DNA of 12,078 bases. Origin: a virus. Made by a program: the position numbers and the translations under genes. Below are positions 298 through 12,078 of the stretch, in pieces. Position 1 is the first letter of the stretch, and each line of letters opens with the position of its first letter. The notes below the pieces were generated by a model, which saw only the letters and a program-made list of their open reading frames with translations, was not told where the DNA came from and made no database searches. The DNA is taken from UHGV virus genome UHGV-0261881; one strand, 5' to 3'.

Positions 298-1941
298 ATG
301 AAGCTGCTAGTGACATACATCAGGTGGAGTACTAAAGAGCAAGACTCAGGAGACTCCTTAAGACGGCAAACAAACCTCATTGATGCTTTCTACTCTAAGC
401 ACAAAAATGATTATTACCTTCTTCCTGCTCACAGATACGTTGATAAGGGTAAATCTGGTTTTCACCAGCAACATAAGAATCAAGGTTCTGACTTCAGACG
501 TATGTTTGAAAATGTTATGTCTGGGGCTATTCCAGAAGGTTCCTTGATTGTTGTAGAGAACTTTGACCGCTTCAGTAGGGCTGATATCGACACAGCTATA
601 GATGATGTCAGGCAGATACTGAGGAAAGGAGTCTCTATACTGACTCTGGGAGATGGTGAACTCTACGACAAATCAGCATTAACAGACCCTGTGAAGTTGA
701 TTAAGCACATCATCATAGCTGAGCGAGCACATCAGGAATCTCTTGTTAAACAAAAGCGTATAGCTCAGGTCTGGAACCATAAAACACAGCTTGCAAGAGA
801 ACTTAAGAAGCCTATGGGTAAGCAAGCCCCCGGATGGTTAGAGCTATCAGATGATGGTTCACACTACATCGTTGATGAAGATAAAGCGTCACTGGTGAAT
901 ATCATCTATGACAAGCGTCTTTCTGGTATGTCGATGTTTGCTATCTGCAAATGGCTAAACGAACAAGGTTACCCGACCATTAATCAGCGTAAGGTCAGAA
1001 TATCCAAGACTAAGAAACCTGATGGTAACTGGTCAGCATTAAGCGTTAAACACATCCTGACTTCACGAAGTGTATTAGGTTACCTTCCCGCTAAGATTTC
1101 TACAGAAGACCGTAAAACAGTGTTACGTGAAGAAATTGAAGGGTTCTATCCTCAGATTGTCACAGACTCTAAGTTTTACGCTGTACAGCAACTGTTAGAG
1201 GAAACAGGGAAGGGGAAAACATCCAGCGGTGAACACTGGCTATATGTGAACATACTGAAGGGGCTTATCCGTTGTAAGTGTGGGCTTGTAATGACTCCTA
1301 CAGGGATACGTAAACCCGTTTATCAAGGTACTTACCGTTGCAATGGTAATAAGGAGTCCCGTTGTAGCTACGGTACAGTGTCCAGAAAGTTACTTGATAC
1401 ACAGCTTTGTAGTCGTCTGTTTAGCAAACTGTCACAGCTACACGATGAAGCTACCGATACAGCTAAATTAGATGAACTGCAACGCAGACTAAACACCGTT
1501 GATAGTGAACTGGAAAAACTCACTGAGACGCTGATACAGCTTCCTAACATCACTCAGATTCAAGAAGCACTACGGGTTAAACAGGAAGAAAAAGATGAAC
1601 TGATAGTTCAGTTATCACGAGAAAAGGCGAGGGTAAAATCTGTATCAAGCTTGGATTTAAGCGGTCTTGATATGGAGTCTGTAGAGGGGAGAACTGAAGC
1701 CCAGATTATTATTAAGCGTTTGGTGAAAGAGATTGTTGTTTCTGGTAATGAAAAGCTGGTGGATATATATCTTCACAATGGAAATATGATTCGTGGTTTT
1801 CCTCTTGATGGTAAAGATGACCACACCTTAACGCTTGAAGAAGCAACCGATGAGATGCAGTCATTAGATGATATGCTTATTTTTGGTGAACCAGTAACAA
1901 GGATTTATCCTGCTGGTGATATGGAAGAGGTGGACGCTTAG
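298..1941 (+). CDS. Large serine recombinase (integrase), 547 aa
   Basis: N-terminal catalytic motifs YIRWSTKEQ (catalytic Ser), [15 protein letters not shown] and ERAHQESL. Cys-rich stretch IRCKCG...[14 protein letters not shown] consistent with a recombinase zinc ribbon. Coiled-coil-like C-terminal region ([21 protein letters not shown]). ATG start at 298. Position next to the att junction. Confidence 0.88.
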
Positions 1942-1960: not shown

Positions 1961-2734
1961 TCAATAAGTGCCCTTCTTATTCGGATTCACACTAAATTTC
2001 CGTAAAGCATTACCCGACTTAAGCACTTTTGAAGCCTGCTCATTAGCTGAGGCTGTGAAGGTGCTTACACCATCTTTCACCGTGACATTTTTAGAGCAAT
2101 TGCTACGGACCCTTAGCGCTTCATCAGATAGCTCAGATGCTGAGTAGCTATACAGTTCCTGACACATCAACATAGGTGCGTTATTGCGTTCAGTAGTCAC
2201 GTTACCCGCATTCTTCTTAGAAGTTGCGCCACCATCATTTGTGGTAGCGGCCTTTCCAGTTGCAGCAGAGATATCAGTCTGACCAACAACAGCTTTAAAG
2301 TTAATTTCCTGAAAAGTTAGCTGGATTCTTAGACCATTTGAAATACCAACATCTTTAGATGCTTTAAAGCTTGTAATAATGGAATCATCAATTTTAATTC
2401 CGTCCTTACAGATAACAGAAATAATTTGCTTCTGGTCACGCCAGCTTTCAAGAGTGTCAATGAAGTTTTCTACTAATTGACCCTGACGAGTTAATAATAA
2501 GCTTCCTTCATAGCCAACTACAACGACACCACTAATAGTGATTGTTCTGGGTGCTCTTTGCACATTATCTGTGACGGTTTGCCCTGATTGCATGTTCTGT
2601 GTAGTCACCTGCATAGGGCTATCAAATTCCATGTTTTCAGTTGCTGATAAGGTTAAGAAGGCATCTACATTGTCTCTTAAGTGGAAATAGATGCCATCTT
2701 TGCCACTGTAACGAATCTGATTAGAGTAAATCAT
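1961..2734 (-). CDS. Hypothetical protein, 257 aa; weak resemblance to a phage distal-tail/structural protein given its position after the tape-measure-like gene
   Basis: Long ORF. The track's TTG start at 2755 is replaced here by the ATG at 2734-2732, which has a strong SD (aaggag, 7 nt upstream on the minus strand). Beta-rich-looking sequence ([15 protein letters not shown]). No catalytic motif recognised. Confidence 0.6.
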
Positions 2735-2813
2735 TAAATTCTCCTTTGATTTCAAAGGCTTAGTGTATTTTAATCATTTTTAACCAAGCCTTTGATATAT
2801 AAGTATTTTCTCT

Positions 2814-2968: not shown

Positions 2969-5044
2969 TTATTCCTCTGGGTAAGCTGAGCTAATCAAGG
3001 TATCTTCCTGCATACGATTAATATGCGATGTGGTTCTTTCATCAATAACCTTTCCATCAAGTACCGTCTGAGTTGTGATATTGATTGTCTGAGGCTGAAT
3101 GTTTACTGACGGCTTGATAACCTTTAAATCTTGTGTGAATGTTTCCACTCGACCTTTCAGATTATTTAATGCTTCAGGTGAAAACTGTGGAACATCTTTT
3201 GATTTGCCCTGAACCATAGCCCATAAAACAGCGGCTAAAGAGTTCATGTCACCAGACAATGCTTGGTCTGTAGGTTCCACCTTTGACCTTACAACTTTGT
3301 CAATTGGATTATCTGACTTACTCATCTGACGTTCATAGAACGGTTTAACAATGGAGTTAATCACATCAGTTGCCATACCGACAATCATTACTTTGGTAAT
3401 TGCATCAGCTACAGATAATTTTCCTTTACCACCTTCAACACTACCGGAACGTGAATTAATTCTTCCTGCTGCTGTATTTGCTACATTTCCAAGCGTGGAA
3501 ATAGCCCTAATTAAGCTCCAGATGCCACCTACAGCACCAATACCAGACCTTACAGCAACAATACCAGCAAGTCCCTTTAATGCACTTAACAGGCCATTTG
3601 CGATACCATCAGCTACAGCTTTTTGAGTGTCATTTAATTCTCTGTAAGCAAGGGTCACTCTGTCAAAGAATCCCTGCACTCGGTAGCTAATCGTGGTTAA
3701 ATCATCAATACCGTTTGACATACTTTTCATCAAGTCGCCAAAATGTTCACCAAGATTTTTAGATTGCCCACCTAGCGAATTAAGTAAATTAGTCAGTGAC
3801 CTTGTAAAGTCTGTTAAACCTTCCTGTGAACCGTCGAACATTAAGGCCAGATTATTATTCCATGAATTAGAAAGGCGGCCTAACTGCGTCTGAGTAGAGT
3901 TAATAATCTTTTCCCATCCACCAGCTTTATCAATCATCCTTCCCATTTCAGCGGATACTTTAGGAAGAACATCTTTAGAAAGAACTTTACCGTCTTTCAT
4001 AGCCTTGTCTAATTCTTCTGTAGTCATCCCAAGGCTTCTGGCAAATAACTGGAAAGCACCTGCCATTCTGTCACCTAATTGACCACGTAGCTCTTCAGCC
4101 TGAATCTTCCCTTTAGAAGCCATCTGCTCGAAAGCTTTCAGAATCCCGTTAATTTCATCAGTACTTAAACCCATTAATCTGGATGTGCCAATCACATTAC
4201 TAAATAAGGATTCTTTCTGGCCTGCATCCATATCACCAGCACCAGCGGAAAACTTAGCAAAACTGCTTAATGTTTCAATCTGGTCAACACCAGTATTATT
4301 AGCAAGATTCTTAACAAATTCTGTAGCTCGTTTAGCACCTTCATCACCTAAAACGAATTGTGCCGCTCGTTGTGATGCTTCTTTTTTCAGACCAACCTCC
4401 ATAATCTTCCTGTAAGCTTCTAAGGCTGTCTGAAAACTATAAATGGCTGTACCTGCTTTGATTGCACTTGTAGCTAATACATCCAGACCATTCGAAGCAT
4501 TTTCACTGTGATTATTTTTGCTGGTGGTCTTGTTAAACTTAGAAAGTGTTTCACGAAGAGACTGATTTAATTTTGCTAACTCACGATTAAAAGCTTCGTT
4601 TCCAAGTGTCTTGGATTTACTACTTAATGCGTAAAACTGACTCTTAATGTATTTCTCGACAATTGGGTTAAGACCTTTCAGCTTGCTCATATTCGCTGAA
4701 TAAGCTGCTGTGATTGCTCTGTTTCCGCTAATTCGTGGTTGCCTTGATTGTTTTGGAGGATTAACAGTGTCATTAAATCTGGTGGCAAACTGAAATGCTT
4801 TTGTGCTTCTTGCTCTCTGTTCAATCTTGTCAAAGGTCTTATTAAACTTCCTTTCAAGCTGCCCTAAAGAACTTGTCAGATTGCTGTCAAGTTGCTTGGT
4901 ATCGACCTTAAACGCTCTATTCAAATTGCGTTCAATTCTTTGTGCTGACTGCAAAGCTGCCTTTTCAACTCTTTGCAAGCCCTTAATAACGTTTTCACTG
5001 AAACTAAGTTCAACGATAAAACTATCAACTGTGAATTTGCTCAT
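2969..5044 (-). CDS. Tape-measure-like protein (phage tail length tape measure domain), 691 aa
   Basis: Central block GLSTDEINGILKAFEQMASKGKIQAEELRGQLGDRMAGAFQLFARSLGMTTEELDKAMKDGKV resembles the tape-measure core domain. Gly/Ala-rich hydrophobic segment (GLLSALKGLAGIVAVRSGIGAVGGIWSLIRAISTLG) and coiled-coil-like N-terminus are typical of tape measure proteins. ATG start with SD agaggtg. Confidence 0.65.
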   Translation of the reverse strand: MSKFTVDSFIVELSFSENVIKGLQRVEKAALQSAQRIERNLNRAFKVDTKQLDSNLTSSLGQLERKFNKTFDKIEQRARSTKAFQFATRFNDTVNPPKQSRQPRISGNRAITAAYSANMSKLKGLNPIVEKYIKSQFYALSSKSKTLGNEAFNRELAKLNQSLRETLSKFNKTTSKNNHSENASNGLDVLATSAIKAGTAIYSFQTALEAYRKIMEVGLKKEASQRAAQFVLGDEGAKRATEFVKNLANNTGVDQIETLSSFAKFSAGAGDMDAGQKESLFSNVIGTSRLMGLSTDEINGILKAFEQMASKGKIQAEELRGQLGDRMAGAFQLFARSLGMTTEELDKAMKDGKVLSKDVLPKVSAEMGRMIDKAGGWEKIINSTQTQLGRLSNSWNNNLALMFDGSQEGLTDFTRSLTNLLNSLGGQSKNLGEHFGDLMKSMSNGIDDLTTISYRVQGFFDRVTLAYRELNDTQKAVADGIANGLLSALKGLAGIVAVRSGIGAVGGIWSLIRAISTLGNVANTAAGRINSRSGSVEGGKGKLSVADAITKVMIVGMATDVINSIVKPFYERQMSKSDNPIDKVVRSKVEPTDQALSGDMNSLAAVLWAMVQGKSKDVPQFSPEALNNLKGRVETFTQDLKVIKPSVNIQPQTINITTQTVLDGKVIDERTTSHINRMQEDTLISSAYPEE

Positions 5045-5226: not shown

Positions 5227-5430
5227 TTACCTAACCAGATAATAATTACCATCTTCACCGACAATCTGACAATCACTTGGTAATTTATCAAGACACCATT
5301 TAGCGATTCTTCTGATTCTGTTATTTTGCTTAGAGGTGGATGATTTGATTCGTTTTGGTTTGTTGGGTTGTTCTTTCAGTCGTTCACTAATTGCCTTGAT
5401 GAGTTCATAGCGTTCTGTTAAATCAATCAT
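5227..5430 (-). CDS. Hypothetical small basic protein, 67 aa
   Basis: ATG start with a strong SD (aaggaggtg). N-terminus MIDLTERYEL is paralogous to the upstream 102-aa protein (MSDLTERDKR). Confidence 0.55.
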   Translation of the reverse strand: MIDLTERYELIKAISERLKEQPNKPKRIKSSTSKQNNRIRRIAKWCLDKLPSDCQIVGEDGNYYLVR

Positions 5431-5455: not shown

Positions 5456-5764
5456 TTAATCTAAGTAGTGTATACACTCGACACCGCGTTCATTCTTTTG
5501 AATTTCATAACGTAGTGAAAGACCAGTTTGATAATACACAGTATCAAGCTTATTTATCTTATCCTTGAGTTCGATAAGAAGTCGCGTTAAATCATCCCGA
5601 CCATCACACTTTAGTTCGGCAAGAGGCTTTTCTTCCATACGACCAATAAGATATTCAGTGACCTCCTGAATATCACCAAGAGTCATTTTAATTTCATTGA
5701 ACCTATCTTCAAAAGGCTCCATCACCCATTTCATTCTTTTATCGCGTTCTGTTAAATCACTCAT
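5456..5764 (-). CDS. Hypothetical small acidic protein, 102 aa
   Basis: ATG start. Its start overlaps the stop region of the upstream 234-aa gene (5764 versus 5773), suggesting translational coupling. Shares the M-x-DLTER N-terminus with the 67-aa protein. Confidence 0.6.
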   Translation of the reverse strand: MSDLTERDKRMKWVMEPFEDRFNEIKMTLGDIQEVTEYLIGRMEEKPLAELKCDGRDDLTRLLIELKDKINKLDTVYYQTGLSLRYEIQKNERGVECIHYLD

Positions 5765-6477: not shown

Positions 6478-6487
6478 TAATATTTTT

Positions 6488-6556
6488 CCTCTTCTAAGAT
6501 AATTTACGTTTCAGTTTTTAAAAAGCACACCTGACAACCTACGAACTTAGAAGAGG
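6488..6556 (-). promoter_or_regulatory. 5'-UTR hairpin sequestering the SD of the 234-aa gene
   Basis: Perfect 11-bp inverted repeat CCTCTTCTAAG (6488-6498) / CTTAGAAGAGG (6546-6556) with a 47-nt loop. On the minus-strand mRNA the 3' arm contains the SD, 10 nt before the ATG. Confidence 0.5.
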
Positions 6557-6594
6557 CTTAAAAGGCGTTTGCCAAGTATGCTTTTTAAAAGCTG

Positions 6595-6631
6595 AAAAAA
6601 GCCCTAGATAACTAAAACGCTATAAAGGGCT
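6595..6631 (-). terminator. Rho-independent terminator ending the upstream minus-strand operon
   Basis: Minus strand reads AGCCCTttatagcgttttagttatctAGGGCT followed by TTTTT(T). Confidence 0.5.
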
Positions 6632-6949
6632 AAGGTGAAGAAATTAAAACATCTAAAGGATTCAATAACGAATGAACAAGAGTACTTTTCGAGATGACCT
6701 CTCAGGTTATATAAGAGGTCATGTAGCGAAAAGCATTGCACCTTTCCAAATCAGAATATCCATCCATCGGATTATTGAAAATATGATTTTAGGAAGAGTT
6801 GCTCTTCCCTATAATTAAAATTATGTCATACTTAAGGTTATTTGTCAACAGCCTTTTAACAGATTGGTAACATCAATTTCTATTTACTGTGTTGCCTACC
6901 CAGCAACCAACAAATAAGCCAAGCAACGTCCAAGCAATTATTAAGCCCA

Positions 6950-7279: not shown

Positions 7280-7304
7280 TTCTTAAAATCTCCTTTTTAC
7301 CAGA

Positions 7305-7430
7305 CCTCCTCAATCGCTCTGTAACGAGCTAAACAGTCTTTTTCAGGGGTAGCCTGTACAGTGGTATTACCCACCCTAAAATAAGGTAGTTTTTTGCGTT
7401 AGAATGCGATTGAGAGCGTCTGAGAAGCTG
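7305..7430 (+). repeat. Structured inverted-terminus repeat (SIR), copy 1, between the HNH-like gene and the 109-aa gene
   Basis: Aligns base-for-base in the same order with copy 2 (same orientation) and with the reverse complement of copy 3. Shared blocks GCTCTGTAACGAG, CAGGGGTAG, TACCCACCCTAAAATAA, GTTAGAATGCG and AGAGCGTCTGAGAAGCT. Termini are mutually complementary (CTCAATCGC / GCGATTGAG). Confidence 0.75.
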
Positions 7431-8768: not shown

Positions 8769-8817
8769 TCATAAGCTGGCCCTTATAATTGTTAATTTCC
8801 TGTTAACTATATATACA

Positions 8818-8846
8818 ATCTTAGCAGTTTCAAAGGCTAATGTCAA
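8818..8846 (-). promoter_or_regulatory. Sigma70-type promoter of the minus-strand four-gene operon
   Basis: Minus strand reads TTGACA (plus 8846-8841), a 17-nt spacer, then TAAGAT (plus 8823-8818). Confidence 0.6.
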
Positions 8847-8854
8847 GCATTTTT

Positions 8855-8884
8855 TTAACATTTGATTAACATTTATGGTATAAT
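8855..8884 (+). promoter_or_regulatory. Extended -10 promoter firing rightward into the ORF-poor region
   Basis: TTAACA (8855-8860), 18-nt spacer, TGgTATAAT (8876-8884). Divergent from the operon promoter. Confidence 0.55.
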
Positions 8885-8917
8885 GGTTTTATGAGAGAGG
8901 GAAAATATAAAGGCGTG

Positions 8918-8975
8918 GCTATGAGGTTTATTCGATAAACCGAATCAACTATGAGAATGGTCACATGGTTATTGC
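8918..8975 (+). repeat. Direct repeat Rep2, copy A (contains cgaatcaactatgag)
   Basis: Homologous to 10493-10592 in the same orientation (ctatgagRtt ... cgaatcaactatgag ... aatggttatt). Confidence 0.6.
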
Positions 8976-8986
8976 ATTGCACACAG

Positions 8987-9082
8987 GCCTCTTCAATCGC
9001 TCTGTAACGAGTTAAATGGCCTCTTCAGGTCAACTCATAAGGTCAGGTACTTTTTGTATCAGAATGCGATTGAGAGCGTCTT
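8987..9082 (+). repeat. Structured repeat (SIR), copy 2 (shorter), forming the leader of a small ORF
   Basis: Shares the 5' block cttcaatcGCTCTGTAACGAG and 3' block AGAATGCGATTGAGAGCGTCT with copy 1. The central part differs. Terminal 8-bp complementarity TCAATCGC / GCGATTGA. Confidence 0.7.
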
Positions 9083-9095
9083 ACAAGGAAAACTA

Positions 9096-9272
9096 ATGGT
9101 AAACCTCCCTCCTGAGCTGGGGTCACCTGATGTTTGGGCTGGTGGAGGTGTGGGTCTGATTGCAGGCCTGCTACTTCGCTACGTCCTCGTCAGAGTGCTT
9201 GTTGTCTTTAAACTGTTCGGTCGTACATGGACGCTTGACCTTAAGGATAATGACCACACAGACCCCCGTTAA
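9096..9272 (+). CDS. Putative small membrane protein, 58 aa
   Basis: ATG at 9096 with SD aagga 7 nt upstream. Translation MVNLPPELGSPDVWAGGGVGLIAGLLLRYVLVRVLVVFKLFGRTWTLDLKDNDHTDPR has one hydrophobic helix and a charged tail. Weak hairpin (CCCCT/AGGGG, 9286-9309) downstream. Confidence 0.35.
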   Translation: MVNLPPELGSPDVWAGGGVGLIAGLLLRYVLVRVLVVFKLFGRTWTLDLKDNDHTDPR

Positions 9273-9391
9273 ACCCCCTTCAAAACCCCTATACCATCTC
9301 GTACAGGGGTATCTTTAGCATTTTGTGCTATCTATTAAAAAATAGCTTGACAGAACCGGAAAGCTGTATTTATCAAGTATTCACCTCTCTG

Positions 9392-9564
9392 ACAGTGATT
9401 TCTAAAAATACTTATTTTTCAATGAGTTGTAATCACCCATATATAGAGAACTGACAAGTCTCTTCACAGAGAACTCTGTAACCTTAACAGTAATTTCTAA
9501 AAATACTTATTTTTCAATGAGTTGTAATCACCCAATATATAAGGCTGTCCAGTACCTTCACAGA
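9392..9564 (+). repeat. Tandem direct repeat, two units of ~80 bp with a 95-bp period
   Basis: Units 9392-9470 and 9487-9564 share a ~55-bp near-identical core (acagtRatttctaaaaatacttatttttcaatgagttgtaatcacccatatata) and a downstream cttcacaga. A GCTCTGTAAC-like motif lies between the units (9474-9482). Confidence 0.7.
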
Positions 9565-10375
9565 TGACTTCAAGCCTTCTTAGCTATCCACTAAGCGGGA
9601 GAAGAGCGATAACCCCAGAGAGGGAAGCTCCCTTCTAATTGGTATTGTTATGAGGATGCTTCATCCGAATCATCTACCAATCCCTAAACCGACTCTCTTA
9701 ACCAGCCCTTTACGTTATTCGTTCACAGTGTTGATAAGTGGTTTTGCCCTCTGTTTCTGTTATCATCGGGCTTACCTTATCAGGGCTTTGAAATGCCCTG
9801 TAACTCCCCTCTTAACGGGAGAGAAAGAACATAGTGACCCCAAGCGAAGCGCCCCTCTAAAAAGATTTTTTAGCTACTTTGTTTAAAAGCACATCAAACG
9901 ATACATTTTATTGATTTAGGTCAAAGACAAAAGCATTGACAAAATGGTAAGATTGTTCACATGACCTTACTTAACAGATTCTTAAGAGCTTTGAAACGGC
10001 CTATTTAACAAGGTCACTACCTACGGTTCTTCGTTTTCCTTCTTTCTAGGTAGTCATCTGTTAAGAGTTTTTCAGTCTTACTCTTAAGAATCACTGTTAA
10101 GATGATACTCTCCCCTTCGGGTTATATCGTATCTCTTCTCCCGTTAAACACCCCTTCCTAACTATCTACATAATCACTTCTAAGAATCTTACAAGGTAAT
10201 ATCCAGACCTCTTATAGTTGACCTGATACAGAAGTTTTACAGGCATACTCTCTAGGTTACTAATCGGGTGCTATCAAGGGCCACTAAACGAGAGAGGGGA
10301 TATGTGACCATAGGGGAACCCCTCCTGTTAAAAAGGCCACTTAGAAGTCTGAGACTTTAGTAAAATCTGTGAATA

Positions 10376-10492
10376 TAGCTTCTCAGGCGCTCTGTAACGC
10401 ATTCTAAGCGATTTTACCCCTTTATTTTAAGGTGGGTGGTACATCCCTATAGACTACCCCTAAAAATGGGGTTAAAACTCGCTACAGAGCTT
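10376..10492 (-). repeat. Structured repeat (SIR), copy 3, inverted relative to copies 1 and 2
   Basis: The reverse complement of 10371-10500 aligns along its length with copy 1 (blocks GCTCTGTAGCGAG, AGGGGTAG, TACCACCCACCTTAAAATAA, GCTTAGAATGCG, AGAGCGCCTGAGAAGCT). Termini are complementary (GCTCTGTAGCG / CGTTACAGAGC). Confidence 0.7.
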
Positions 10493-10592
10493 TCTATGAG
10501 ATTAGCTTCATGAAGTAATTCATTACTGAATCACCTAATCGAATCAACTATGAGGCTTGGTAAGATTGTGCAAAATCTGTACAATGGTTATT
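10493..10592 (+). repeat. Direct repeat Rep2, copy B
   Basis: See Rep2 copy A. Here it abuts SIR copy 3. Confidence 0.55.
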
Positions 10593-10850
10593 TGGCTTCT
10601 GAAAATTTTTACAAAAATCATAGTAGCCCTCTTTGAATCTCATCTTCCCCGAATCTTCAAAAATATCTGACAGATGTCTGTAGCTGCTAAGTACCCGTCA
10701 CACCAGCTATGTGACCCCCTTTGCAAAAAAGCCAAATATCTATTGACTTTCTATGTGAATTGCTATAAAGGCATCTATCTAGACCTTTAACTGTATAAAT
10801 ACACATGACAACAAACGCCCGTTAAGTGTCTATATAAAAAGGTAGCTGTA

Positions 10851-10895
10851 GCTATAGACAACAATTGTGATAATTGATTTAATGGCTATAGACAA
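10851..10895 (+). promoter_or_regulatory. Two direct GCTATAGACAA repeats upstream of the small recombinase gene (candidate operator or binding sites)
   Basis: Identical 11-mers at 10851-10861 and 10885-10895 (34-bp spacing). Related TATATAG-like motifs at 10828-10836 and 10914-10922. Confidence 0.4.
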
Positions 10896-10935
10896 GCAAG
10901 ACAGACCTTTGTTGACTATATAGAGAGATAAGAAC

Positions 10936-11505
10936 ATGCGTACATTCCTTTATGCTCGTGTATCAGTTGATGACCTCACCACACAAAACCAAGTAGAAGC
11001 TGTTAAACGTGCTGGTTATGAAGTCAAACCTTCACGAGTGATTGAGGAAGTTATTAGTGGTGCTACACCAGCTATGGACAGACCACAATTTGTAAAGCTG
11101 GTGGATAAGCTGGAAGAAGGTGATTGTCTTGTAGTGACCAAGATTGACCGCTTAGGAAGGGATAACATTGATGTACAGAAGACCGTCACAATGTTACTGG
11201 ATATGGGTGTGAAGCTAATTTGTTTAGACCTGCCTGTAAAAGACCTTTCAAGTGCTGAAGGTAAACTTATCCTTCAACTATTCAGTACCTTTGCAGAGTT
11301 TGAACTTAACCGCATCAGAGAGCGAACCAGAGAGGGCTTAGAACGAGCTAAAGCACAAGGTAAGGTGTTGGGTCGTCCTGTAGCTAAAAACACTACAGAG
11401 GCCGTTTTAGAGCATAAGGCAAAGGGATTGTCACAAAGTCAGGTTGCAAAGCTTCTGAATCTCTCTGTGAGAACGGTTAGCCGTCACTGGACAAAGACAC
11501 TGTAA
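10936..11505 (+). CDS. Small serine recombinase (resolvase/invertase family), 189 aa
   Basis: Motifs YARVS (catalytic Ser), VVTKIDRLGRD and ERTREGLERAKAQGKVLGRP, plus a C-terminal helix-turn-helix (GLSQSQVAKLLNLSVRTVSRH). ATG start. Confidence 0.88.
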   Translation: MRTFLYARVSVDDLTTQNQVEAVKRAGYEVKPSRVIEEVISGATPAMDRPQFVKLVDKLEEGDCLVVTKIDRLGRDNIDVQKTVTMLLDMGVKLICLDLPVKDLSSAEGKLILQLFSTFAEFELNRIRERTREGLERAKAQGKVLGRPVAKNTTEAVLEHKAKGLSQSQVAKLLNLSVRTVSRHWTKTL

Positions 11506-11526
11506 GAAACTTAGTAGCATCTTCAT

Positions 11527-11550
11527 AGCCTCCTTCATGGGGGCTTTTTT
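11527..11550 (+). terminator. Rho-independent terminator after the small recombinase gene
   Basis: AGCCTCC-ttcat-GGGGGCT stem (one G-U pair) followed by TTTTTT, about 22 nt after the stop. Confidence 0.6.
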
Positions 11551-11558
11551 GTATCCAC

Positions 11559-11626
11559 TCTCTAAGCGTGTCCTACGCAAAATCTCCTGAACACTTACCC
11601 ACCCTCAGAAATAACTTTCACGTAAG
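11559..11626. repeat. Diverged third copy of the promoter-like cassette (copy C), containing a TTACCCACCCT block shared with the SIR repeats
   Basis: ctctaagcgtgtcctacgcaaaatctc resembles the cassette A/B core. The loop contains ttacccaccctcagaaataa, similar to TACCCACCCTAAAATAA in SIR copy 1. 3' arm ctttcacgtaag. Confidence 0.45.
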
Positions 11627-11937
11627 AAACTGTTAAGCAGCTTGATAGTTATTCTGTGTGACCAAACATCTATATATCGTTATATAGTCCTGTATATAGC
11701 ACTTTTCTAGGAGTCGAGAGAGGGACGACTAACACGATACAGTTTACCCTGAAAAGAGACTTCACAGATTCTCTATATATTTCAATAAGTTAGGCTAAAA
11801 AGAGACTATACCGATACTGCATAGAATCTGTGTAAAACTGCTTAGATACTTGGGAAAATGCCTTTAAATTGAATAGGGATTCACCTGATATTGTCCTGTT
11901 ATTAACAGGTAGTTGAATGTACGTGTTTAGCTATGTA

Positions 11938-11947
11938 AAAGCACCAG
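11938..11947. other. attR junction (element side | host wrbA side)
   Basis: Sequence ctatgtaaAAAGCAC|cagaactttagccat: the right part is the reverse complement of the native wrbA start ATGGCTAAAGTTCTGGTGC. Confidence 0.7.
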
Positions 11948-12078
11948 AACTTTAGCCATTTCTAACCACTCCTCGTGTTATCTCTATTCCGTAGCGATTC
12001 GCTACCACTTATTTAAAGATAAGACGTCCTTTTCAGAGTGCAAATTTCACAACCACTTATTTGATTTATAACAACTTT
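11945..12078 (-). other. wrbA: Displaced native wrbA start codon (11959-11957), first codons, SD and native upstream region
   Basis: Minus strand reads gaggagtggttagaaATGGCTAAAGTTCTGGTGC..., giving MAKVLV, the native WrbA N-terminus. It is separated from the rest of wrbA (1-222) by the element. Confidence 0.8.

Follow-up and report, generated by a model that had tools for sequence, protein, structure and literature searches.

The DNA analyzed here is a 12,078-nucleotide (nt) stretch of the virus genome UHGV-0261881 (hereafter the window, meaning that stretch at its full length), which amounts to roughly one complete island of ~11.7 kb inserted in the 5′ end of wrbA. The minus strand of its first 250 bases codes for the N-terminal portion of WrbA, with the first codons replaced, and the stretch homologous to other island copies stops at ~11911, leaving flanks at positions 1 to 250 and 11912 to 12078. 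Within the island lies a small open reading frame (ORF) whose product of 58 amino acids (aa), MVNLPPELGSPDVWAGGGVGLIAGLLLRYVLVRVLVVFKLFGRTWTLDLKDNDHTDPR, is the subject of this analysis. We are highly confident that this 58-codon ORF is a true accessory gene. Judged by its predicted signals, it is a self-contained cassette comprising a sigma-70 promoter, a short leader, a Shine-Dalgarno (SD) sequence, 58 codons, and a hairpin terminator. Coordinates of these and other features are collected in Table 1.

Table 1. Features of the small gene and of the island that carries it (positions are those of the window)
Feature	Position	Strand	Remarks
Large serine recombinase	298-1941	+	Island backbone
Felixounavirus tube-initiator homologue	1961-2755	-	Island backbone
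Tape measure protein	2969-5044	-	Island backbone
Hairpin repeat copy C	7301-7427	+	Oriented like copy A; between 109-aa gene and HNH gene
Divergent promoter of leftward operon (184-aa gene onward)	8818-8846	-	TTGACA, 17 nt, TAAGAT with TG; conserved; back to back with P1
Promoter P1 of small gene	8855-8884	+	TTAACA, 18-nt spacer, TATAAT with TG (extended -10); sigma-70, score 11/12
5′ leader of small gene	8891-9095	+	Start (~8891) placed from the -10 position; alignments
Hairpin repeat copy A	8985-9087	+	-34.2 kcal/mol, z = -3.5
SD sequence AAGGA	9085-9089	+	6 nt 5′ of ATG 9096
Gene for 58-aa bitopic membrane peptide	9096-9272	+	ATG 9096, TAA 9270-9272; conservation, dN/dS, AlphaFold, hydropathy
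Terminator-like hairpin	9286-9309	+	CCCCTATAC-CATCTC-GTACAGGGG; -16.1 kcal/mol, z = -3.8
19-codon ORF (MVTYPLS...)	10252-10311	-	Not conserved; GGAGGGG upstream; within one of three purine-rich/GTGACC motif copies
Hairpin repeat copy B	10379-10492	-	Inverted relative to copy A
Small serine recombinase, 189 aa, resolvase/invertase type	10936-11505	+	Pfam Resolvase; variable right-arm cargo

The coding evidence comes from comparison with other copies of the island (loci designated by L numbers below). A program-made ORF list gives a longer form with a TTG start (72 aa; 9054 to 9272). As TTG 9054 falls inside an optional hairpin and relatives do not have it, the conserved start is ATG 9096; in the alignment, every variant has an AGGA or AAGG at a constant distance from this ATG, whether or not it carries the hairpin. 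Among 12 distinct DNA alleles, variable sites at the first, second, and third codon positions number 18, 4, and 30, the mean ratio of nonsynonymous to synonymous substitution (dN/dS) is 0.15, and one arginine codon has changed synonymously from AGA to CGG. The sole change in length is an in-frame 12-nt insertion, which produces a 62-aa allele. Thirty residues are invariant across the alignment columns of 15 sequences, and a Citrobacter copy of 60 aa that is only 56% identical (tblastn) has kept the frame, the promoter, and the leader; conservation of the frame in related elements had been proposed as a check on the gene when it was noticed in a sequence-only reading, and the gene passed it. 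A chance ORF within noncoding DNA could be argued from the RefSeq pipeline, which leaves the ORF without annotation in most genomes, and from family searches that returned no match. Because the substitutions are codon patterned and purifying, however, and the indel is in frame, this idea falls, and we give it almost no credence. The gene DNA was found in 407 of 5426 complete Escherichia coli genomes (~7.5%), mostly unannotated, and 1050 blocks of an assembly collection contain the identical 58-aa protein. Carriers of the island include ETEC TW11681 and O111:H8 strains. Islands of one module type (L009, L011, and L012) lack the gene, which is therefore accessory and dispensable for the core life cycle of the island; no nonorthologous small membrane ORF was seen in its place in the gene-less island L011. 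A coupling of the peptide allele (58 or 62 aa) to the allele of the tape measure protein was considered and dropped, as the 62-aa allele of L007 and the 58-aa allele of L014 are both found with a tape measure protein of 688 aa.

The peptide is the only protein of the island with a transmembrane-grade segment: its Kyte-Doolittle maximum over 19 residues is 2.27, while all other island proteins reach at most 1.58. AlphaFold predicts a single continuous helix over residues 11 to 51 (mean predicted local distance difference test score of 71, rising to 88 to 89 at residues 21 to 40); the helix of the bitopic peptide is placed at approximately residues 14 to 38. The N terminus is acidic (E7 and D12), and K39 and R43 open a charged C-terminal tail, so that, by the positive-inside rule, the peptide would be oriented N-out/C-in in the inner membrane. 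The helix contains a glycine zipper of the small-xxx-small type, G16-x3-G20-x3-G24, with glycine or serine at position 16 among family members, and two arginines, R28 and R33, that lie inside the helix and are both invariant. Small-xxx-small motifs usually serve helix-helix packing or oligomerization, and the combination of the zipper (G/S16, G20, and G24) with the two arginines suggests that the peptide may oligomerize in the membrane. The initial description of a small gene with an SD sequence, one hydrophobic helix, and a charged C terminus is thus upheld by the dN/dS, the hydropathy, and the AlphaFold model. Its suggested kinship with small membrane toxins and holin-like peptides is sustained as far as architecture goes, which is that of small phage and satellite membrane effectors, but not by any family match. 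Searches of Pfam, PHROGs, PADLOC, and NCBIfam gave no match to the peptide; nor did tblastn when run on 50,697 phage records with E values up to 1 allowed, and no DNA match was found in a plasmid collection. When 5.8 billion proteins were searched through a word index, and 1.84 billion representatives exhaustively with an HMMER profile, both searches recovered the peptide's own family only, whose members belong to E. coli, Escherichia albertii, and Citrobacter and always stand in the same island context. The family is a new orphan, although of a familiar sort: phages and satellites are known to encode small membrane effectors.

Expression of the gene would start from P1, whose −35 box and spacer consist of two TTAACA(T) repeats set 11 bp apart (8855 to 8871), an exact match to TTAACA-N5-TTAACA. 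P1 is kept in 16 of 16 aligned relatives, including the Citrobacter copies, and another TTAACA-N5-TTAACA (8790 to 8806) lies beyond the divergent leftward promoter. Common to every leader is a small hairpin, GUGGCUAU...AUGGUCAC (~8917 to 8965), whose loop holds an optional 30-nt insertion in the window (8922 to 8951). Short hairpin insertions of this GGTTTATTCGATAAACCGAATCAACTATGAG type, flanked by CTATGAG, occur at several unrelated noncoding sites: 8922 to 8951 in the window, L008 and L014 (57-nt version), and, as a 27-nt version, L023, in its counterpart of the motif copy at ~10283 to 10327. Folds of 16 leader variants leave the SD sequence mostly unpaired (P of ~0.6 to 0.8 in most). In the minimum-energy fold of 7 of these 16, a 5′ purine run (GAGAGGGA or GGGGAGA) pairs with CUCCCUC in codons 3 to 6; both partners are of low complexity, no covariation between them was found, and we treat this pairing as a lead only. 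Beyond the stop codon, the terminator hairpin is followed by a U-rich tail and then by a second small hairpin (feature to 9330). Compared with most relatives, the window and L006 have this terminator hairpin in exactly reverse-complemented form, a flip that turns a G-U pair of the RNA stem into an A-C mismatch.

Between the leader hairpin and the SD sequence lies copy A of a family of hairpin repeats, called SIR copy 2 when it was first noticed. That a structured hairpin with an inverted partner precedes the gene was correctly recognized then: the fold of copy A was matched by 0 of 200 shuffles, copy B is its inverted partner, and copy C is a third member. The repeats are ~105 to 135 nt long, with conserved ends and a variable interior, and their presence differs between island copies. 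Copy A is present in the window and in L003, L006, L007, L013, L017 to L020, and L022; L004, L005, L008, L014, L023, L025, L026, and L035 lack it, among them all of the most diverged copies, and it is missing in 7 of 16 distinct relatives. Loci without it have an unchanged promoter, SD sequence, and ORF. Copy A ends 3 to 4 nt 5′ of the SD sequence, and the junction re-creates AAGGA. No U-tract was found 3′ of copy A, and Rfam at a permissive threshold returned no match for it, the only hit being a sub-threshold match to a microRNA (miRNA) model elsewhere in the window. Since copy A is absent in many relatives whose gene signals are intact, and since the SD sequence is predicted to be open, copy A is best described, from its distribution and predicted folds, as an optional member of a repeat family and not as a dedicated riboregulator of the small gene; the proposal that it controls translation is not supported. 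The miRNA match concerns a long hairpin at 6499 to 6612, in the intergenic gap from 6478 to 6949, which scores 35.5 bits against a plant miRNA model whose gathering score is 90. The hairpin is real, but its placement in that family is almost certainly spurious. The arrangement of the repeats recalls the PeSL-type promoter/stem-loop cassettes of T4-like phages, likewise repeated intergenic stem-loops that stand by promoters and bracket small variable ORFs, although their sequence differs from that of the hairpin repeats here.

Two further proposals of the sequence-only reading, that the leader is the target of an antisense RNA and that the small ORF is exchanged for another by DNA inversion, fared no better. 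Promoter prediction gave nothing on the minus strand from 8850 to 10400. The best trans duplex that any 50-nt stretch of the noncoding region forms with the translation start has an energy of −34.3 kcal/mol, which lies within the range of shuffled controls (mean, −29.4; standard deviation, 3.0; minimum, −37.6 kcal/mol) and is therefore unremarkable, and an antisense or trans RNA partner was dropped as a candidate. In the inversion model, the hairpin governs translation and the small recombinase inverts a 1.3-kb segment, exchanging the 58-codon ORF for the 19-codon ORF. Its appeal is that inverted repeat copies bracket positions 9088 to 10378 and that a gene of the resolvase/invertase type lies 0.45 kb away. 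However, when the junction expected from an inversion between copies A and B was searched for in all complete E. coli genomes at a coverage of at least 80%, 0 of 420 matching genomes had a place with such coverage; the two halves of the query always lay on opposite strands, as in the window, and the fetched loci were all collinear. From island to island, copy A, copy B, and the small recombinase vary independently: copy A or B is often missing, and the recombinase, which scores 75 bits against the NCBIfam Mpi invertase family (cutoff, 272 bits), is often replaced by Dam, HNH-AP2, or other genes. The 19-codon ORF that would be swapped in, with its GGAGGGG, does exist, encoding MVTYPLSRLVALDSTRLVT at ~10311 to 10252 (originally placed at ~10300 to 10244), but it is not conserved. 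Its ATG is GTG in L023, a 27-nt insertion interrupts it, its length varies from 9 to more than 27 aa, and the frames differ, so that neither start, length, nor frame is kept in orthologues and we reject it as a gene. The inversion model as a whole is highly improbable, and we reject it.

The island surrounding the small gene has a backbone made up of the large serine recombinase and two tail genes. The tube-initiator homologue is 75 to 76% identical in amino acids to a Felixounavirus protein encoded beside the tape-measure gene, and its gene is 92.7% identical to that of phage EC106 over 510 nt. In phage Bas63, gp17 is the tape measure protein and gp18 the tube initiator (PMC12609058); by gene position, the island protein corresponds to gp18. 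The island tape measure protein is 29% identical overall to that of Felixounavirus, with patches of 77 to 81% nucleotide identity, and for nine small island genes the phage had no counterpart. Elsewhere the island lies in yecE or beside yciI, with recombinase variants of 506 or 507 aa, compared with 547 aa here. By its gene content, the island resembles a PLE-like satellite or a defense island against virulent Felix-O1-type myoviruses. Searches of the literature library returned no description of a Felixounavirus satellite or of a serine-recombinase island in yecE or wrbA, and a comparative study of Felixounavirus makes no mention of the noncoding region. No tRNA was detected in the window.

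Several other observations concern island architecture. The right arm (9300 to 11600, compared with L003 to L027) is a cargo hotspot whose content changes from island to island: a Dam methylase in some, and in others an HNH-AP2 nuclease, an uncharacterized protein of 221 or 277 aa, or small serine recombinases in either orientation. On the minus strand, proteins of 67 aa (5227 to 5430) and 102 aa (5456 to 5764) have a common N terminus, M(I/S)DLTER, and may be paralogues; the 67-aa gene lies just upstream of the tape-measure gene, the position expected of a tail chaperone. At the right end of the island (11880 to 11911), by the recombination junction, stands the palindrome CCTGTTATTAACAGG, kept as CCTGTTTTTAACAGG in other copies.

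The noncoding DNA of the island is conserved to the same degree as the genes. The noncoding stretches 8776 to 10250, 10576 to 10740, and 11676 to 11900 are each conserved in 20 to 23 of 24 loci, and ~1.1 kb that holds no conserved ORF (9300 to 10250 and 10576 to 10740) is kept in 20 to 23 of 24 diverged islands; it may contain an origin, a packaging signal, or noncoding RNAs. Direct repeats with a spacing of 95 nt lie at 9392 to 9475 and 9487 to 9569, and extended −10 boxes of the form TGnTAAGATTGT occur three times (8818 to 8830 on the minus strand, 9945 to 9956, and 10558 to 10569). A stretch of 51 to 58 nt (9629 to 9689) is 94 to 100% identical to part of a 1.7-kb Felixounavirus noncoding region. 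It belongs to a ~52-nt mini-element with TTGGT...ACCAA ends that was also seen in L009 (11007 to 11058), L013 (12938 to 12989), and L002 (2501 to 2554 and ~3254 to 3285). In some islands it is inserted right at the right end, and EC106 has an additional copy without the central 24 nt; to judge from these placements, it behaves like a tiny mobile insertion.

The motif from which P1 is built is likewise common to island and phage. For TTAACA-N5-TTAACA, which sets the repeats in an 11-bp phase, the window has 5 sites where 0.18 would be expected, a count reached by 0 of 200 shuffles. Two sites lie in the divergent promoters flanking the small gene and one just after a third promoter-like site; the sites listed are 8790 to 8806 (minus), 8855 to 8871 (plus), 9971 to 9987 (plus), and 6845 to 6872 (plus). 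In half of EC106 there are 16 sites against 0.78 expected, and 14 of these 16 fall in the phage noncoding region (L029, 36778 to 37377). The sequence CTGTTAA by itself has 17 occurrences in the window, where 2.75 would be expected. This distribution suggests that a common DNA-binding protein, for example, an initiator or regulator, may read the TTAACA/CTGTTAA motifs. A purine-rich motif, GAGAGRGGRA followed by (A)TAGTGACC or ATGTGACCAT, occurs at ~9598 to 9640, 9816 to 9860, and 10283 to 10327, as well as at 8893 to 8965, three to four times in the island, and it is found in the Felixounavirus noncoding region too (L002, ~3140 to 3190).

Among known systems, the island has most in common by description with the PLEs of Vibrio cholerae, which parasitize phage ICP1. 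Likenesses are the large serine recombinase, a small genome, satellite genes for a tape measure protein and a baseplate or tube initiator that have diverged from those of the helper, and a long, repeat-rich noncoding region; the island thus combines a large serine recombinase with tail genes related to those of a virulent phage. PLE genomes are roughly 18 kb, compared with ~12 kb for the island. There are also clear differences, in that the hosts here are E. coli, E. albertii, and Citrobacter, the presumed helper is a Felixounavirus, the island is known from its sequence alone, and it has no recognizable replication initiator, capsid-remodeling gene, or nuclease genes. PLEs encode a large serine recombinase together with their own tape measure, chaperone, and baseplate hub proteins, and they form chimeric tails (PMC12987554). 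Two small PLE proteins are relevant to the peptide. LidI is a previously unannotated transmembrane ORF (66 aa in PLE1 and PLE2) that has homologues in all five PLEs and none elsewhere (PMC7182436), and PLE11 Rta is an 80-aa protein expressed before infection (PMC12987554). Like LidI, the 58-aa peptide is small and unannotated and has no homologues outside its island family, and it is the only transmembrane-grade protein of its own island; the setting is alike as well, with integration by a large serine recombinase, a tie to a virulent myovirus, and a tape measure protein encoded by the element. This likeness is one of description, and expression sets the two apart: LidI is not detectable before infection (PMC7182436), whereas the 58-aa peptide has a strong sigma-70-type promoter. 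Furthermore, Felixounavirus is not known to show lysis inhibition; in this respect, EC106 has only genes annotated rIIA and rIIB.

Other small membrane proteins offer partial parallels. Pinholin S21-68 contains a glycine-zipper motif, and the glycine-zipper transmembrane helix of the 58-aa peptide is similarly suited to oligomerization, as in pinholins and holins. However, the peptide has one helix only, there is no adjacent endolysin or spanin gene and no dual-start motif, and no holin family matched. HK97 gp15 is similar in having ~60 aa, one transmembrane helix with a charged tail, an autonomous cassette with a terminator, and an association with a tape-measure gene, but it differs in that its helix lies at the extreme N terminus and has no glycine zipper, and in that it comes from a temperate phage rather than a satellite-like island. 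Toxins of type I systems (the Hok, Ldr, Fst, and TisB classes) are, like the peptide, small, hydrophobic, and single-helix and have a long 5′ leader; here, by comparison, no antisense or trans antitoxin RNA was detected, and the SD sequence is predicted to be open.

We tentatively propose, at somewhat less than an even chance, that the small gene encodes a membrane effector of satellite-helper conflict, LidI-like or holin-like in action. The peptide would insert in the inner membrane as a single long helix, N-out/C-in, and oligomerize through its glycine zipper; during conflict between satellite and helper it would perturb membrane integrity or the lysis clock of the helper, and infection would end early, on the island's terms, as with LidI or a pinholin. 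Its expression would probably be tuned by whichever protein reads the 11-bp-phased TTAACA repeats, because these repeats make up the promoter, fill the noncoding region of Felixounavirus, and stand at other island promoters as well. Several points weigh against this proposal. The promoter looks strong and housekeeping-like, in contrast to the silence of LidI before infection, and a pore-former made constitutively should be toxic. No known holin, antiholin, LidI-like, or exclusion family is similar in sequence to the peptide. Searches of Pfam and PHROGs found no lysis-type gene (endolysin or lysis cassette) in the island, the sole PHROG lysis annotations being weak secondary matches of the tube-initiator homologue. 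Moreover, the gene is dispensable, and we infer the satellite status of the island from homology.

Alternatively, the peptide could be a superinfection-exclusion moron, made continuously from the integrated island and blocking phage genome entry at the inner membrane, as HK97 gp15 does. Consistent with this are the near-consensus sigma-70 promoter with an extended −10, the gene's own terminator, the predicted accessibility of the SD sequence, and the location of the gene in a cargo-variable arm, as well as the likeness in architecture to gp15, a 62-aa protein with a single helix at its N terminus and a charged tail, which is annotated as a moron with a terminator and lies beside the tape-measure gene. 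Homology to gp15 is nonetheless lacking (hhalign probability, 1.7%), PADLOC gave no match, and the glycine zipper and the membrane-embedded arginines are left unexplained. Furthermore, an element that depends on a helper gains nothing by excluding it, so that the targets would have to be other phages. We regard exclusion as rather unlikely. A rather more doubtful alternative is a type I toxin-like peptide, serving island addiction or abortive infection and silenced by its own leader through the pairing of the 5′ purine run with codons 3 to 6. In its size (58 aa), hydropathy, single helix, and charged tail the peptide is like toxins of the Hok/Ldr/Fst type, and the 7 leader variants that pair the purine run with CUCCCUC just after the AUG offer a conceivable means of silencing. 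Against it, no antisense promoter was predicted over or near the gene, no RNA candidate of the island exceeded shuffled controls, the purine/pyrimidine pairing is of low complexity and shows no covariation, and the SD sequence is predicted to be accessible.

The membrane-effector reading can be extended to the island as a whole, in a form that we put forward as speculative and on balance improbable. The window may belong to an undescribed family of E. coli, E. albertii, and Citrobacter satellites that would parasitize virulent Felixounavirus by means of chimeric tails, as PLEs do with ICP1. The 58-aa peptide would then be its membrane effector, either a counterpart of LidI or a weapon made in advance, like Rta, with a promoter wired to the TTAACA repeats of the helper.

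Whatever its function, the gene illustrates cleanly how standard annotation can overlook a small protein that is conserved. Approximately 7.5% of complete E. coli genomes carry it, unannotated, in an island that is apparently tied to Felix-O1-type phages, which are widely used in typing, biocontrol, and therapy. The wider interest lies in the island itself and in the cis motifs that it has in common with Felixounavirus. If the peptide does alter lysis timing, membrane integrity, or phage entry, it would be a hidden determinant of the susceptibility of E. coli to phages, and the island would offer, in E. coli, a tractable parallel to the PLE/ICP1 system of Vibrio.

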